From the IMG/VR virus record IMGVR_UViG_2740892274_000005: a DNA stretch of 44,169 nucleotides; one strand, given 5' to 3'. This stretch comes from a virus (lineage: Duplodnaviria; Heunggongvirae; Uroviricota; Caudoviricetes). The position numbers and the translations under genes are program-made. Of this stretch, positions 3,145 through 9,986 are shown in pieces. The notes under the pieces were generated by a model. That model saw only the letters and a program-made list of their open reading frames with translations, did no database searches and had not been told where the DNA came from. The first letter of the stretch is position 1; each line of letters opens with the position of its first letter.

Positions 3145-4317
3145 TCACGATGTGCGAATAAAAAGCCCGGGCATTGCGCCAGAGACATGAGCATCCGGCA
3201 CCCCGGACAGGGCGCTATATGACCCCGGTAATGAATGCTCTGAACATCCCGTAATGAAAAATTGTGGGGATGCTATATACGTTCCGGTGGGAGTACTGGG
3301 CACTGAAATCCCCACCGGTCCCAGTCGTGAGCCTCTGTATGACTGCCCCCTGACAAGTCTGATGACTTTATCACCGTCAGCTTCTCCCTGGTACGCAGCA
3401 ATAATCAGCCCGCCAATGTCAGGGTCTCCCCATCTGTTGCAGACAGAGCTCGCCACGATTCTGTAAATAATATCTTCTGTGGTTATATTTATTTTCACCC
3501 AGCCAGTCAGTCTGGATATGGGCCAGTAGCAGTAGCGGGTGTGATAAATGGGGCCGTTAATGCCGTAAAAAGTAAGGGATTTGGCTCTGTACCTCGGTTC
3601 TGTTGTCTCAGGGCGTGCATCAGTCCACCGGATGCTGAGCACCCCTTCAAACCGTGTGTCGGGTATGATGATGTCGTAGGGGCCAGCAACGGAATATTCA
3701 CCTGGCAGCGCATTCCTTACCCAGGCCAGGAAATCACTCTTAGTGTCAAAACGGATAACATCTTCAGGCAGAAAAGCACACCCAAAGCCGAATGCGCCGG
3801 GTATCGCCAGACGGCCTTTTGTCCGGTCGTAAATGTCGCTCTGTGCTTCCATCGTGGCCGCACTTTTCAGCCCCAGATTATCCCGGGACTTCTGTTGTGC
3901 CTTTTCGCCTGCTGCTGCGATTTCAGACAGATGGTTAGCCGTTTTCAGAGTGCCGGTCAGCGCAGCATCAATGTCATTTTTGGCCTGCTCTGCTGCGCGG
4001 GCATAACCTGCGGCTGCCGCCACATCCTGCGCCGTCTGCTGTGCGTTTCCGGCTGCGGCCCCGGCGCTCTGCTGCGCCTGCGCCACCATTTCCTCAAAGC
4101 GTTTGACGACATCCGGTTTCAGGTCGCCCTCATCAGGAGCAATCAGAAAGTCATTCAGCGTGCCGGGCTTTGAGTCGTCGTATACAGCAATGTCGCCAAC
4201 GTTGTACTCGTTGTGCCAGCCCGGTTTCAGATACACACCATATTTTCCAGTCCGCGCATGGAAACAGTATTCACCATCGTTTCCTGTCATCACATCAGCA
4301 ACAGTGTGCATCACCAC
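3145..4317 (-). CDS. Phage tail fibre protein, probably a 5'-truncated remnant abutting the IS66 terminus
   Basis: 390-aa translation with an Ala/Gln-rich segment (AQAQQSAGAAAGNAQQTAQDVAAAAGYARAAEQAKNDIDAALTG...) then ...NLGLKSAATMEAQSDIYDRTKGRLAIPGAFGFG..., which resembles side-tail-fibre proteins. The first in-frame Met is only 16 bp from the IS66 end at 4334. Confidence 0.55.
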   Translation of the reverse strand: MVMHTVADVMTGNDGEYCFHARTGKYGVYLKPGWHNEYNVGDIAVYDDSKPGTLNDFLIAPDEGDLKPDVVKRFEEMVAQAQQSAGAAAGNAQQTAQDVAAAAGYARAAEQAKNDIDAALTGTLKTANHLSEIAAAGEKAQQKSRDNLGLKSAATMEAQSDIYDRTKGRLAIPGAFGFGCAFLPEDVIRFDTKSDFLAWVRNALPGEYSVAGPYDIIIPDTRFEGVLSIRWTDARPETTEPRYRAKSLTFYGINGPIYHTRYCYWPISRLTGWVKINITTEDIIYRIVASSVCNRWGDPDIGGLIIAAYQGEADGDKVIRLVRGQSYRGSRLGPVGISVPSTPTGTYIASPQFFITGCSEHSLPGSYSALSGVPDAHVSGAMPGLFIRTS

Positions 4318-4370: not shown

Positions 4371-4829
4371 TTATTCAGTCGGCAGTGCTACGCGCCAGGG
4401 GAGCAGTTCGCCGACCCGGTTTATCGGCCAGTCGGCTATGACGTCAAGGACATAGCGGAGGTAGCTTTCTGGCTCCACTCCGTTCAGTTTGCACGTCCCG
4501 ATCAGGCTGTACAGCAGCGCTCCCCGCTCTCCTCCATGATCCGAACCGAAGAACAGGTAGTTTTTGCGGCCCAGACTGACCATCCGCAACGCATTTTCAG
4601 CGATGTTATTGTCCGCCTCAGCCCAGCCATCATCTGCATAGTACGTCAGCGCCGGCCACTGGTTCAGGGCATATGCGAACGCTTTCGCCAGTTCTGAGTG
4701 TCGCGACAGGGTTTTCATCTTTTCACGCAGCCAGCTTTCCAGGGATTTCAGCAGCGGTTTCGTTTTCAACTGACGTTCGGCAAGGCGCTGTTTCAGCAGG
4801 AAGATGTCGTCAGAAGAGATGTCGTTCAT
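4371..4829 (-). pseudogene. IS66-family transposase TnpC, C-terminal fragment only (about 150 aa)
   Basis: Translation ...IAENALRMVSLGRKNYLFFGSDHGGERGALLYSLIGTCKLNGVEPESYLRYVLDVIADWPINRVGELLPW... matches the conserved C-terminus of IS66 TnpC. The N-terminal two-thirds is absent; the frame closes just before the prophage right end. Confidence 0.8.
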
Positions 4830-5047: not shown

Positions 5048-5785
5048 TCATTCACTCTCTTTCAAACCAGTTTTAACTGTTTGTGGTTTTGGGTAAGGCT
5101 GGACTTTGAATAGCTTTGTGTTAAGGCGTTTTCTGGCTCTCTTGTCCAGAAACCGGATGTAACGAAACTGACGGAATTTATGAACACTGGCTCTGTCGAT
5201 ATTAGCCCGCAGATGTTCACCTCGCTGTCCTCCTCGTTTGATTGCATTCTTGCAAATCTCGTGATACCACTCGCCATCAAGTTCATAGAATGTTGTTTCA
5301 TGACTGCCTACATAATCAAAATTGCTTGCCTGGTACACGACACCAAGACAGCCACAACGCTCATCTGCAAACGACTGAACCCACTGCACCTGCGGATAAA
5401 GTTGTCTGATTAGTTTGAGCGCGTAACTGATTGCCCTTGATTCGGAGTTTCTCGGCATACAGTCATGCAGCCATAACCGGTTAAGCTCCATATATTCGCG
5501 GTTCTGCGTGCCAGTTACGACGCGTGCACCATTGTTTGGATTAAGGGCATAACCCCATTGCATTACGCCAACCAGCTCCCGTTCTGAAAATATGCCCAGA
5601 TGAAGGTAGGAATTATTTACGAAACGATGGCTGTAATGTTTATTGACGACGACCAGCCGGGCCAGCCAGCAACTTATTGTCTCAACCCGTAACTCACGGG
5701 AGCCATAACCGACGATATTGTCGTTATAGTGAATAAGTTCAGGCGTGCTGATGATACGGGATGTAACTTGCTTTCTGTTCCCCAC
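5048..5785 (-). CDS. mom: Mom-like DNA modification protein (adenine carbamoylmethylation family), start inferred at internal GTG
   Basis: Last gene before the right end and overlapped by a Com-like gene, as in Mu. Proposed start GTG at 5785..5783 preceded by AGGAAA with a 9-nt spacer (245 aa, against 231 aa for Mu Mom). The tracked 310-aa ORF 5048..5980 would run through com and is not favoured. Identity rests mainly on synteny. Confidence 0.6.
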
Positions 5786-5939
5786 GACAGGATTTCCTTG
5801 TGTATGTGGGGTGCTCTGTGGCGCTCTGAGATGTGATTTGATTGAGGGTTTTACAGCGCGGACATTTAACTTCCAGATAACTGAAGCTGGCTCGTGCCAG
5901 TAGCTTGTTACAATGTCGGCACCGTATGTTTCGATACAT
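5739..5939 (-). CDS. com: Com-like zinc-finger translational activator of mom
   Basis: [34 protein letters not shown]...EHPT... matches the Mu Com pattern (IRCKNCNKLL...IEIRCPRCK...EHPT) as I recall it. ATG at 5939..5937 with AGGAGG 10 nt upstream. The 3' end overlaps the mom start, as in Mu. Confidence 0.75.
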
Positions 5940-5984
5940 GGCCGCATAACCTCCTGCTTTGTTGTTGATATCTTTATCACTCAA

Positions 5985-6075
5985 TCGATCGACAAAAACG
6001 ATCGATTTGATTTATTTAATTGATACAACAAATAACACGAAATGTCATTAGCGAAAATTTATGAGTTTGATCACT
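5985..6075. promoter_or_regulatory. Putative mom promoter/regulatory region with a GATC (Dam site) cluster
   Basis: AT-rich region upstream of com with GATC at 5987..5990, 6000..6003 and 6069..6072. In Mu, Pmom is governed by the Dam methylation state of upstream GATC sites (OxyR binding) and is C-activated. No promoter hexamers assigned. Confidence 0.4.
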
Positions 6076-6195
6076 AATTTTAAACGGTGCTGTAACGCAT
6101 AAGTGCTGAATGATTGTACATTTGAATACCGCAAAGCAAACAAATCAACTAATTTATAGAAGTCAATTGGTTAATTGCCAGCGTAAGAGGCTGCT

Positions 6196-6489
6196 ATGGA
6201 CAATCATGTAACGACGAGAAATCGAAAAATGATTGAAAATGCGGAAATCTATAATGATTATTTTTCCGATTATTCAGATGCCTGCAAATACAGTTCGAGT
6301 GCGGGAGAGTTCATATGCTTCAACTTTTTTATTAAATCTTATGTTTTTCCTCCACAGCAAGAAGATGGAGGTGTGCCACCTCCTGAAATCACTTTGCACC
6401 GTATAGCCTCCGTCTCAATGATGGAGCAACAGGCTAATGAGCTGTATAGCATTCTGGGAACGATTCTACAAAAGCGTGAATCGGACTAA
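6196..6489 (+). CDS. Hypothetical protein (low-GC moron), divergent from com-mom
   Basis: 97-aa ORF with AAGAGG 6 nt upstream of the ATG. Visibly AT-richer than the phage backbone. No family recognised. Confidence 0.5.
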   Translation: MDNHVTTRNRKMIENAEIYNDYFSDYSDACKYSSSAGEFICFNFFIKSYVFPPQQEDGGVPPPEITLHRIASVSMMEQQANELYSILGTILQKRESD

Positions 6490-6656
6490 TGATACCGGTT
6501 CATTTGCCTGCCCGGATGGGGAAGCAGGATTGACTGCTCCATAAGCAGCTATATTTCTGAATACGAAATACTATCCAGCGATTACATATGGCTGGATAGC
6601 GGCAAAGATGTTTTCATTAGTGTCAAACCGGCAGAGGACACCACCGGTTTGTATTG

Positions 6657-6911
6657 TTACATCATGGTACTGTCAGTTCCGGGCTGAGCCGGGTCTGGTT
6701 GCTCTGGCTGCGCGTCGGTTTTCGGCTCATTATCAGCATCACTGGCCGCAACTGCTGGCCCAATAAGTTTTGCCAGCACTTCATCAACGTAAGTGTCGAT
6801 TTGTGCCTCAAAATCCTTGCGGACCTGCGCTTTCAGCAACTTATTTACTTCACCGGAATACAGTGCCTGTTTTACCAGGTCTTCAGTGACGGTGCCTTTA
6901 ATTTCTGGCAT
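6657..6911 (-). CDS. Hypothetical acidic 84-aa protein
   Basis: ATG at 6911 preceded by AAGGAGGA with about 6-nt spacing. Translation MPEIKGTVTEDLVKQALYSGEVNKLLKAQVRKDFEAQIDTYVDEVLAKL... then an acidic/Pro-rich tail. No family recognised. Confidence 0.6.
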   Translation of the reverse strand: MPEIKGTVTEDLVKQALYSGEVNKLLKAQVRKDFEAQIDTYVDEVLAKLIGPAVAASDADNEPKTDAQPEQPDPAQPGTDSTMM

Positions 6912-6946
6912 GTATATCCTCCTTATGCGGGAATAAAGCCCTGCAA

Positions 6947-7129
6947 TCAGGGCTGGGTCGGGTCTTTTGGGAGCGGAGTTACCTGCGCTGTTTTACTGAG
7001 TTTTTCAGCTGCTGCGTCCTCAATTTTGCGGCGAACATAATTTCTGATGGCCTTATAACCACCACTCACCAGATATAACGCACATACTGCCGTGCAGAAA
7101 TACAATAAAATAAGCTGTAAAAATGTCAT
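6947..7129 (-). CDS. Small single-pass membrane protein (60 aa)
   Basis: ATG at 7129..7127 preceded by GGGAGGG. MTFLQLILLYFCTAVCALYLVSGGYK has one N-terminal hydrophobic helix followed by a charged tail. The tracked ORF begins 4 codons earlier. Confidence 0.6.
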   Translation of the reverse strand: MTFLQLILLYFCTAVCALYLVSGGYKAIRNYVRRKIEDAAAEKLSKTAQVTPLPKDPTQP

Positions 7130-7225
7130 TATCCCTCCCAATTATTGACATGGTGTTGACACCGGTAATATCTGTTAGGTAAAAAGGTGCACTGCATTTT
7201 TTGCTTTGGATATAACGATCTTTTT

Positions 7226-7267
7226 GCCGCCGGTTTCTTGTTTTCCCTTACCGGCGGCATTTTTTTA
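7226..7267 (+). terminator. Rho-independent terminator, plus-strand orientation
   Basis: GCCGCCGGT (7226..7234) and ACCGGCGGC (7250..7258) form a 9-bp GC-rich stem, followed by ATTTTTTTA on the plus strand. On the minus strand the hairpin is followed by AAAAAG, so it is oriented for plus-strand transcripts. Confidence 0.55.
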
Positions 7268-7273
7268 TCCTGC

Positions 7274-9328
7274 TTACGCGTTATTCACTTCCACCACGAT
7301 ACTGTCAATCAGTACCGGGTAAGTCGCATTTTTAGTGATATCGGTCACGCGCAACTTGTCTGCCGTAAACGTGCCGACCGGAGACTGCGACAGCATGAAT
7401 GGTGTCCCGTCCTTACCATCAATGACCGGCGTCACCTCAATACTGTTGTTACCGGCAAAACGGAAGCCCAGCGTATGCCATTCGTTATTAAATGCGCCGA
7501 ATGACCCCAGCTTCGTGTTCTGCGCCGTGTTTCCTTTGTGATACATCACGTTAAGGTCTGTGGCATCGCTCTGTACGTAGAACGATGCCAGCAGGTTATG
7601 ACCGGCATTTCCTTCCAGAGTAACCCCTTGCGGCAGGGCAGAAACCGGCCAGTACAGCGCCAGTGCGTACTGATTAGCCGTAAGCGCGCCATCGAGTTTA
7701 AAACGACAACTGACAAGACCACCTTTACCCAGCAGGTCCGCACCATTACCAGCATCATGCTCAAGGTACCAGGGGGCTCTTCCTGTTTCCTTGGTCAGTT
7801 TCATTGCCTTACCCCCGCTGGCTCCGGCATCATCCACGATTTGAGCCTTGCCACCTCCGGCAGCCCAACCCTGTGGTGTCAACCGTCCTTCAGACTCAGA
7901 TGCCCGGTAAGCAAATAGCGTACTCATCGTCGTGGTGTCTGCGGGTGGCGTGGACGGTTTTGATGGTGTATCAGGTGACGGCTTCTCATCCGGTGGTGTC
8001 ACGGTCTGCCCACGCATCAGTTCAGCCGTGCGCCCTGCATGGAGCATAATAGCTGAGGCCAGACGGTCTGAAATGACGCCCCTGCGTGCCCATGAGCTGA
8101 AATGGCTGTCACGCTGTGTCGAAACAAAACTGCCCTGGGTTCGGGATGCTGCACCGTAATACCCGACAGCCACAATATCCGGGTCTTCCGCCGGAGCATT
8201 CGTTGGCGTGCTCTGTCCATTCTCATCCGTCAGGAACGGTACAAAGAAAATTTTCTGTGCTTCCTTGCCTTTGTAGCCACCGTATACTGCCTCATATTTA
8301 TCGGTGCCAGCGTTTTTCCAGTAATACGTGGTATCACCGCAAATCCACGGCACCGTGGTGGCATTTCCACTCACGCACTGCGCAGCAAGCGGAGCCAGGT
8401 CAGTTCTGAACTGCTGAACCATGGCCGTGAATAAACTATTATGCTGCTGGCTTCCTGAGGCAAGGTCTGCCTCTCCCTGCATCCAGACCACAGCCAGAAG
8501 TTTGTTTTTCGGGTTTTTCGCCAGCGCGACTTTGGTGCGGCTTACCAGGTCCTGATACAGAGGTTTACCGGCCCCCCAGCGTGAAGAATCAGCGGAAGCA
8601 CCGCTGGCCTCACTGAATGAGCCGTCGGCTCCAGTGGTGAATGCTGACCCGCCACGACAACAGGGCACCAGAAGTATCCCGGCATTCTGTGGGATATAGG
8701 GAAGCAGTTTTTTGGCAATATGCAACCCCTGACCGACAGTCCCGTACTGGCCTTTTGCCAGATCAGCTTTCGGGTGGTTTATCCCGCTCATATCCTGAAC
8801 ATCATGCAGGCAGTGGTCTGCCGGAATGATGTCGTTGTATGTACACGACGTACCGTTGGGCGTTACCGTACTGCGGCGTGCCAGTTGCTTAATGCGTGGG
8901 TCCGGGCGGTCAAACGAATCCGGTAACGGCAGCCCCTCGCCGTAGGCCATGCCATTTGACTGACCCGCGAGAATGACAACAAAGTAATATTCCGGCTCTG
9001 AACTGCTGCCATTCGTGCTACCGGAAGGCCCGGCGTTATCCGGTGCATTCCAGTCGGAGGGCGTGAGCGTTCCGGCCACGTCAGATGTGATTGGAATGAT
9101 GCCAGTCACGCCTGAACTGGTGATTTCTGCACTGGGATTACCGGATACCGGCATTACCCATAATGGCTCTTTCGTGCTGAAGCGGATCACGCAGTCTGCG
9201 AAGGTGATCCCCCCTTTATTACCCGAAGGGCGGAAAGGGCTTTCAATAAATGCCACCGTGCCACCGGCAACCTTGACTGAAAACTCTCCGGGCATGGCGG
9301 AGAGCATTTTCCACTTGGAGTCTGACAT
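7274..9328 (-). CDS. SGNH/SASA-type carbohydrate esterase-domain protein (sialate O-acetylesterase-like), 684 aa; candidate polysaccharide deacetylase
   Basis: Contains the esterase block YYFVVILAGQSNGMAYGEG (GQSN motif of the SASA/SGNH fold) after an N-terminal region of about 115 aa. C-terminal region of about 250 aa could be a lectin/jelly-roll domain. Not a Mu core gene. Confidence 0.7.
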   Translation of the reverse strand: MSDSKWKMLSAMPGEFSVKVAGGTVAFIESPFRPSGNKGGITFADCVIRFSTKEPLWVMPVSGNPSAEITSSGVTGIIPITSDVAGTLTPSDWNAPDNAGPSGSTNGSSSEPEYYFVVILAGQSNGMAYGEGLPLPDSFDRPDPRIKQLARRSTVTPNGTSCTYNDIIPADHCLHDVQDMSGINHPKADLAKGQYGTVGQGLHIAKKLLPYIPQNAGILLVPCCRGGSAFTTGADGSFSEASGASADSSRWGAGKPLYQDLVSRTKVALAKNPKNKLLAVVWMQGEADLASGSQQHNSLFTAMVQQFRTDLAPLAAQCVSGNATTVPWICGDTTYYWKNAGTDKYEAVYGGYKGKEAQKIFFVPFLTDENGQSTPTNAPAEDPDIVAVGYYGAASRTQGSFVSTQRDSHFSSWARRGVISDRLASAIMLHAGRTAELMRGQTVTPPDEKPSPDTPSKPSTPPADTTTMSTLFAYRASESEGRLTPQGWAAGGGKAQIVDDAGASGGKAMKLTKETGRAPWYLEHDAGNGADLLGKGGLVSCRFKLDGALTANQYALALYWPVSALPQGVTLEGNAGHNLLASFYVQSDATDLNVMYHKGNTAQNTKLGSFGAFNNEWHTLGFRFAGNNSIEVTPVIDGKDGTPFMLSQSPVGTFTADKLRVTDITKNATYPVLIDSIVVEVNNA

Positions 9329-9413: not shown

Positions 9414-9986
9414 TCACGGTACTTTTGGTGACGGAGCTGGTGAGGCAGGAAAATAACGATAAAGGGTGGAAAGGCCAATATCAAATATCAGTGCGATTTG
9501 TTTACGGGACTCGCCATTAGCCAGCAAACGGGCGATTTGCTCCCGCTCTTTCTCTGTCAGTTTCTGAGGTCTGCCGCCATGACGCCCCTGAGCACGGGCA
9601 GCAGCAAGACCCGCGCGTGTACGTTCAATAATGAGTTCCCGCTCCATTTCCGCCAGCGCGCCCATTATATGGAAAAAGAAACGTCCCATGGGAGTGGATG
9701 TATCAATATTGTCCGTAATGCTGCGGAAGTTAACGCCGCGTTGCCGGAGTTCTTCTGTTAAAAGGACAAGGTGCTGCATACTGCGTCCAAGGCGATCCAG
9801 TTTCCAGACCAGCAGGGTATCCCCTGGCCGGAGTCGCTTTAATGCGCGTTTAAGTCCGGGACGCTCCCTTGTCTTACCGCTTATTCTGTCTTCGAAAAAC
9901 AGCTCACATCCTGCACATTCCAGCGCATTTCTTTGTAGCGCCGTATTCTGGTCATTTGTTGACACCCTGATATACCCAATCAGCAT
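9414..9986 (-). CDS. gin: Serine recombinase DNA invertase (Gin/Hin/Cin/Pin family)
   Basis: MLIGYIRVSTNDQNTALQRNALECAGCELFFEDRISGKTRERPGLKRALKRLRPGDTLLVWKLDRLGRSM... is near-collinear with Mu Gin as I recall it. Lies immediately beside the invertible segment. Confidence 0.93.
   Translation of the reverse strand: MLIGYIRVSTNDQNTALQRNALECAGCELFFEDRISGKTRERPGLKRALKRLRPGDTLLVWKLDRLGRSMQHLVLLTEELRQRGVNFRSITDNIDTSTPMGRFFFHIMGALAEMERELIIERTRAGLAAARAQGRHGGRPQKLTEKEREQIARLLANGESRKQIALIFDIGLSTLYRYFPASPAPSPKVP

Follow-up and report, generated by a model that had tools for sequence, protein, structure and literature searches.

The stretch of DNA analysed here (IMG/VR virus record IMGVR_UViG_2740892274_000005, 44,169 nucleotides, called the window in this text) contains the right end of a Mu-like Escherichia coli/Shigella prophage on its minus strand. 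Close to the mom gene of this prophage, the list of open reading frames (ORFs) holds a 97-aa frame on the plus strand (6196..6489), to which we refer as ORF97. In our reading, ORF97 is a genuine accessory gene that was captured in a cargo slot beside mom, and it would be the lead gene, standing alone, of a mobile prophage cassette. We give this reading a probability of about one half.

An earlier reading of the letters without database searches (the sequence-only reading) had already pointed out this frame, with the same N-terminus, as a plus-strand ORF with a good ribosome-binding site that lies in a visibly AT-rich patch and is transcribed away from Pmom, on the strand opposite to com and mom. 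All of this could be confirmed. A Shine-Dalgarno sequence, TAAGAGG, can be read directly 5 nt before the ATG at 6196. Between 5900 and 6400, the GC content of 200-nt windows drops to 0.33–0.37, compared with 0.53 for the whole window. With a GC content of 0.40 (0.39 at third codon positions), the coding sequence (CDS) of ORF97 differs in composition from its surroundings, where the neighbouring genes range from 0.45 to 0.55.

The sequence-only reading had also called ORF97 an orphan without recognisable relatives, and this part has to be given up. A homologue encoded by phage vB_EcoS-733R5, which has 29% identity in an 80-aa BLASTP alignment, was first detected by tblastn and opened the way to a second clade, with members in Klebsiella, Raoultella, Enterobacter, Citrobacter and Lelliottia. 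A family profile that had been built without the ORF97 clade matched ORF97 over residues 1–96, that is, practically its full length, with 57.5 bits and an E-value of 1.7e-10, computed at a library size of 1.8e9. The family is rare: when 1.84 billion representatives were searched exhaustively with a profile, 25 clusters of ~100-aa proteins emerged, all between 85 and 108 aa. ORF97 shows the motifs of this family, namely IEN, D.F[AS][DE], a central aromatic F, [AS]SV and L...L in the C-terminal helix. An alignment of the two clades revealed as invariant residues I13, E14, N15, D21, F23, Y32, F45, P52, G58, R69, S72, V73, A80, L83, L87 and L91. We roughly estimate the chance of a 97-codon open frame at 40% GC as ~0.002 per start. 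Because the profile homology is independent of the candidate, a chance ORF is excluded and, judged from its sequence, ORF97 is a real protein-coding gene.

A comparison with a diverged allele from strain CI5 (88% DNA and 79% protein identity), here called CI5, supports this view. The sequence-only reading had named a missing transcription or translation signal, together with a frame free of purifying selection, as the result that would refute it. We observed a ratio of non-synonymous to synonymous substitution rates (dN/dS) of 0.37 in the ORF97 frame and of 0.73 and 1.13 in the other two frames, based on 12.8 synonymous and 21.2 non-synonymous changes (dS 0.27). The Shine-Dalgarno sequence is conserved, and the 155 nt upstream of the gene are 88.5% identical between the two alleles, about as much as the CDS itself (87.9%), compared with 63% for the 134 nt downstream. 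The CI5 allele also bears on the start codon. RefSeq begins ORF97 at 6229 and lists an 86-aa hypothetical protein (WP_000571916.1), for which a literature search gave no match. CI5, which is annotated as 100 aa, carries a Thr in place of Met12 of the window. This exchange, the Shine-Dalgarno sequence and the alignment of the family profile from residue 1 onward favour 6196 as the true start, so that the RefSeq start probably is wrong.

ORF97 is carried by 18 of 5426 complete E. coli genomes, in 26 places, and the frame is intact in all of them. Close copies were found in E. coli and Shigella only; the contexts that we inspected were Mu-like prophages at differing chromosomal loci (citF, rhsC/ybfB, flgL and xdhA). 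At least 1000 contigs encode the exact protein, many from S. sonnei. A tblastn search among plasmids gave no match.

The relatives of ORF97, which we name g1, are informative about its nature. We sampled genomic context in 11 lineages other than that of the window, and in all 11 g1 is the first gene of a cassette on one strand, whose further members abut or overlap g1 or begin within ~20 nt of its stop codon. Eight lineages have the order g1-g2-g3, with sizes of about 98, 85 and 125 aa. The g2 proteins (80–96 aa) share the C-terminal end IP..L.T.E.LD.W[LI]M.L. The g3 proteins (123–128 aa) have invariant GRNK.S, LWHYH.G, HY and HPPF motifs and several conserved His and Cys residues. The g3 pattern LWHYHIG...YVLHY may bear some likeness to RelE/HigB-type toxins or to a cupin metal site. 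In the other three lineages g1 is followed by a coiled-coil protein of 156–175 aa with a transmembrane segment, and this two-gene variant stands directly after the prophage repressor. Searches with g2 and g3 returned nothing from Pfam, NCBIfam, PADLOC or the Protein Data Bank (PDB), and their PHROG matches were all of unknown function. The same is true of the strong PHROG matches of the membrane protein (phrog_3556, E 4.9e-29); a weak match (E 0.0016) concerned a PHROG labelled hemolysin.

The cassettes are spread over Klebsiella, Yersinia, Enterobacter, Citrobacter, E. coli and metagenomes, and they occupy several kinds of positions. Some are located between Q and holin, others beside an Mrr-like nuclease in the tail module or at the end of a Klebsiella prophage next to yfdC, with a retron-type reverse transcriptase (RT) nearby. 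A further position is directly downstream of a cI/S24 repressor on the same strand. Here the distance from the repressor gene to g1 is 68–480 nt (below 90 nt in three of the lineages), and g1 may do without a separate promoter. Cassettes that are expressed in the lysogen next to the repressor include rexAB of lambda and tripartite systems such as PaaR-PaaA-ParE. The g1 cassettes hold the same position as rexAB, immediately downstream of cI and on the same strand. Like the exclusion or toxin-antitoxin (TA)-like cassettes next to repressors, g1 relatives lead operons of two or three genes, one variant of which includes a membrane protein. They differ in sequence, with no resemblance to Rex, Paa/ParE or any PADLOC model, and effector genes are absent from the window. 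ORF97 together with g1, g2 and g3 of two cassettes gave no match to a defence protein in PADLOC-DB v2 (E ≤ 5–10). The g1-g2-g3 cassette is a candidate for an undescribed defence or TA-like system.

In the window ORF97 stands by itself. A tblastn search with 14 partner proteins against the whole window detected neither a homologue of a partner nor a vestige of one, so ORF97 lacks the same-strand g2 and g3, or membrane protein, of its family. Nor does it resemble a type II antitoxin gene, which would have a cognate toxin gene beside it and an antitoxin or DNA-binding domain; neither an adjacent partner in the window nor an antitoxin domain in Pfam or NCBIfam was found. Its stop codon is followed by 134 nt of poorly conserved DNA, with weak, non-conserved hairpins at 6534–6548 and 6571–6599, and then by the hairpin of the DUF826 gene. 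A 14-codon ORF overlaps the stop codon (TAATG, 6487–6491). We rejected it as a remnant of g2, since it has no similarity to any g2. ORF97 is a solitary g1 whose partners are absent and whose 3' flank has decayed.

The DNA around ORF97 argues for a cargo slot. Four sequences were compared over this region in an alignment: the window, CI5, FORC_069 and a Mu-like element carried by a phage that encodes Shiga toxin (Stx2c). The common homology stops ~95–100 nt upstream of the com ATG (~6035–6040 in the window) and starts again at the DUF826 hairpin. Between these points, the window and CI5 contain ORF97, while FORC_069 and the Stx-phage-borne element contain unrelated small ORFs. On this alignment the interval between Pmom and the hairpin is a replaceable cargo slot. 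The distance from gin to com is 94 nt in canonical Mu, and therefore all 3.4 kb between 5985 and 9413, and not ORF97 alone, are extra compared with Mu.

The term moron, which Hendrix and colleagues defined for lambdoid phages, denotes an extra gene that has been inserted among the conserved genes of a phage. As with morons, the site of ORF97 is empty or filled otherwise in related phages (94 nt in Mu, other cargo in FORC_069 and in the Stx-phage-borne element), and ORF97 has a deviant composition, lies on the opposite strand and has a hairpin downstream. ORF97 differs in that no promoter of its own was found and in that the hairpin is part of the neighbouring conserved flank. The proposal of the sequence-only reading that ORF97 is an independently acquired moron is thus supported by the variable slot, the composition and the sparse distribution in E. 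coli genomes, while the sigma-70-like promoter that an independent unit might carry was not found.

The same reading had suggested that the hairpin at 6624..6651 may mark the 3' end of ORF97, and here our results point elsewhere. The hairpin is retained in FORC_069 despite the different cassette and abuts the stop codon of the DUF826 gene; because it is conserved whatever the cargo and because of this contact, it belongs to the DUF826 flank and not to ORF97. As minus-strand RNA it forms 11 pairs including G-U (−16.7 kcal/mol, z −2.6), and as plus-strand RNA it is weaker (centroid −12.3 kcal/mol, z −0.6). CI5 has a perfect 10-bp stem in its place (−21.8 kcal/mol for a 61-nt segment, z −4.5). 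A T-rich tail is found on the plus strand only. It is possible that the hairpin acts as a bidirectional terminator, in which case it could also stop convergent transcription from the slot. Rfam returned nothing over 5850–6750 except a sub-threshold match to IS102. A direct repeat that flanks the cassette (AACACGAAAT/AATACGAAAT at 6034 and 6560) probably is due to chance; it is not conserved in the CI5 row of the alignment.

How ORF97 would be transcribed can be approached through Mu itself. In Mu, a divergent promoter, momP2, overlaps Pmom and is occupied by RNA polymerase when C is absent (PMC3378877). ORF97 lies in the direction of momP2 from the homologous GATC-rich segment, which is conserved here, and transcription may possibly enter the slot from a momP2-like site. 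There are differences, since Mu has no gene behind momP2 and ORF97 is 250 nt away from this region. The remark of the sequence-only reading that Mu has nothing on this strand overlooks this divergent promoter.

We modelled ORF97 with AlphaFold2 from an alignment of 25 sequences (predicted local distance difference test score, pLDDT, 83.7). The model consists of three long strands (residues 26–34, 37–47 and 67–76) and a long C-terminal helix (77–96). Residues 1–24, which contain the conserved IEN...D.F[AS][DE], are modelled with less confidence. The top structural matches are all modules of a sheet plus a helix that work as dimers, and on this model ORF97 probably is a small dimeric binding module. 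The matches to the COMM domain and to PC4/Pur-alpha (Whirly-like) have marginal scores, 5–15% identity, Foldseek E-values above 0.1 and no functional residues in common with ORF97; the likeness is probably one of topology only. Searches of Pfam, PHROGs, PADLOC and NCBIfam with ORF97 gave no match (one PHROG at E 0.26 was disregarded), and the family profile found only noise among PDB sequences (VVD PAS, E 0.36). DUF3467 (PF11950) comes closest: it is ~100 aa long like ORF97, four of 25 g1 relatives match it weakly (best E 0.0015), and one database labels a member of the Klebsiella clade 'DUF3467 domain-containing'. However, ORF97 itself has no match to it at E ≤ 10, and a score at or above the gathering threshold was seen for no member of the family. 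A literature search for DUF3467 retrieved nothing relevant, and since this domain is of unknown function, the link provides no mechanism for ORF97. The homology and structure searches that the sequence-only reading had recommended thus delivered a family and a confident fold, but not a match to a characterised family.

Taking these observations together, g1 could be a non-enzymatic subunit that binds or controls a variable downstream effector, as an antidote, regulator or sensor. We base this on the fact that g1 is the constant lead gene of cassettes with varying effectors, opens the operon, and encodes a small, acidic protein (pI 4.7 for ORF97). The flexible conserved N-terminal segment, IEN...D.F[AS][DE], would be followed by the three-stranded sheet and long helix, a shape typical of obligate dimers. 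The slots of the cassettes (after the repressor, between Q and holin, at a prophage end) are classic sites for cargo in temperate phages, and such positions are transcribed in lysogens. In the Mu-like prophage, which lacks the effector, ORF97 would be a free-standing binder if it is active at all, for example an orphan antidote against cognate cassettes of other prophages. The gene evolves under weakened constraint, either as such a binder or drifting.

Several observations weigh against this interpretation. The antidote or regulator role is one that we infer only from gene order, charge and analogy, and we likewise infer that ORF97 is expressed and that its product dimerises. No usable sigma-70 match was detected in 5990–6200. 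None of g1, g2 and g3 matches a characterised family in Pfam, PHROGs, PADLOC, NCBIfam or the PDB. The dN/dS of ORF97, derived from ~34 substitutions only, is well above that of its neighbours in the same comparison with CI5 and at similar dS (com 0, DUF826 0.085, DUF1378 0.14). Finally, insertion-truncated alleles exist: P0011 and P0014 are fused after residues 67 and 37, respectively, to a common peptide (GNDSNLLIVFYVQIMPDD...), and ORF97 therefore is dispensable in some hosts. The peptide GNDSNLLIVFYVQIMPDD would be read-through into the terminal repeat of IS1; if it is the end of IS1, two independent insertion sequence (IS) elements have inserted into ORF97.

Among the other explanations, the most serious is that ORF97 is a decaying relic, left behind when a g1-g2-g3 or g1-effector cassette lost its effector genes and now open and translatable but functionless in the Mu-like prophage. 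The gene is solitary where all 11 other lineages have partners, the two alleles share only 63% of their 3' flank, the dN/dS exceeds that of the neighbours by a factor of three or more, truncated alleles occur and no promoter was found. On the other hand, what speaks against a functionless frame is its intact state in all 18 carrier genomes and in an allele at a dS of 0.27, a dN/dS of 0.37 instead of ~1, a conserved Shine-Dalgarno sequence and an upstream region conserved as much as the CDS. Moreover, the lack of a recognisable partner vestige means that any loss must be old, and yet ORF97 has survived. We regard this explanation as unlikely, though it retains some weight.

ORF97 could instead be a stand-alone anti-defence factor that works alongside mom; the phage would have kept just the neutralising subunit, as an orphan antidote or decoy that disarms g1-type cassettes of resident prophages, or to counter some other host defence. 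This would fit its place beside the anti-restriction operon com-mom in a slot for exchangeable cargo, the defence-type positions of its relatives (next to a repressor, an Mrr-like nuclease or a retron RT) and the small, acidic protein. However, ORF97 is transcribed away from Pmom and has no recognisable late or early promoter, the cassettes are PADLOC-negative, and Pfam, PHROGs and NCBIfam revealed no likeness to any known anti-restriction protein; we consider such a role quite unlikely. A bolder version seems improbable to us. In this version, the family would mark an undescribed class of lysogen-expressed cassettes, g1 with g2 and g3 or g1 with a coiled-coil membrane effector, that occupy the rexAB-type slot and act by abortive infection, exclusion or in a TA-like manner. 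Mu-like phages would have captured only their neutralising subunit beside mom, where it would serve anti-defence as an orphan antidote to such cassettes. The PC4/Pur-alpha-like fold of sheet plus helix might also suggest a nucleic-acid-binding regulator of the mom control region or of phage transcripts, which we regard as very improbable. A chance open frame in an AT-rich spacer, in line with the missing promoter and the missing Pfam, PHROG and NCBIfam matches, is effectively refuted by the profile homology, the confident fold and the frame-specific excess of synonymous changes; the strong Shine-Dalgarno sequence also speaks against it.

Coordinates of ORF97, of its surroundings in the window and of the cassettes led by its relatives
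Feature	Position	Strand	Remarks
mom	5048..5785	-	DNA modification, anti-restriction; Pfam Mom PF25680, E 1.6e-77
com	5739..5939	-	translational activator of mom; RefSeq on identical copies; protein identical in CI5
Conserved Pmom regulatory segment	5985..6039	-	left slot boundary; kept in window, CI5, FORC_069 and Stx-phage-borne Mu-like element
AT-rich 5' region	6040..6195	+	cassette-specific; leader and presumed promoter; 88.5% to CI5, unalignable with FORC_069
Shine-Dalgarno TAAGAGG	6184..6190	+	read from sequence
ORF97 CDS	6196..6489	+	97 aa; taken as stand-alone g1 of an uncharacterised prophage cassette family
3' flank of ORF97	6490..6623	+	poorly conserved; 63% to CI5
Hairpin CAAACCGG-N12-CCGGTTTG	6624..6651		right slot boundary; 3' end of DUF826
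DUF826 gene	6657..6911	-	convergent with ORF97; PF05696, E 6e-16
DUF1378 gene	6947..7129	-	PF07125, E 1e-31
NanS-p-like esterase	7274..9328	-	684 aa (SASA + DUF6645); Pfam
gin	9414-9986	-	
g1-g2-g3 loci	L014:6001-6951, L005:6001-6931, L021:4001-4952, L018:4001-4959, L025:1281-2240, L045:763-1716, L047:3001-3927		
g1 + membrane-protein loci	L023:4001-4751, L028:1167-1948, L031:4001-4814		

Some further observations concern the neighbourhood of the slot. The block of esterase, DUF1378 and DUF826 genes (6657–9328) that sits between gin and Pmom is absent from Mu; such a block is typical of the Q-holin region of lambdoid phages, between Q/stx and the lysis genes. On the other side of the slot, ~45 nt upstream of the com ATG, there is a near-perfect palindrome with two Dam sites (AATCGATCGA-caaaa-ACGATCGATT, 5983–6007). 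It is kept in all Mu-like variants and can be aligned to the GATC cluster of Mu Pmom. Judging by this alignment, a control region of the Dam/OxyR type seems to be retained, much closer to com than in Mu. In the Mu-like element of the Stx2c phage LC727881 (L026:2334-3386), com is followed not by mom but by a gene for a 350-aa Dcm-like cytosine-5 methyltransferase with a GTPCQAFS motif. The DNA-modification enzyme has thus been exchanged behind the same com/Pmom control region.

Just outside the right end of the Mu-like prophage we noticed two minus-strand ORFs, one of 152 aa (4371–4829) that resembles an IS66-family transposase in its C-terminal part and one of 390 aa (3145–4317) that is tail-fibre-like. 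Since these ORFs adjoin the right end, the prophage appears to have inserted in or beside another prophage or an IS remnant. In strain JE86-ST05, com is frameshifted in one prophage copy (L001:5841-6040), and several tail and baseplate genes are frameshifted in another; within this genome, each copy is decaying independently.

ORF97 was known before as a RefSeq hypothetical protein, and prophage morons are a known kind of gene. New are the g1 family, the architecture of its cassettes and the solitary state of ORF97 in this prophage. As by-products, a RefSeq start codon is corrected, and Mu-like prophages are documented to have a slot for cargo that is bounded by Pmom and by the imported nanS-p/DUF1378/DUF826 block. 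Taken alone, ORF97 is one more small accessory gene of a prophage. It points, however, to a compact and widely scattered cassette in typical defence or exclusion positions that current catalogues of defence systems do not recognise, and its lone copy beside an anti-restriction operon offers a cheap contrast between the lead gene with and without its effector.
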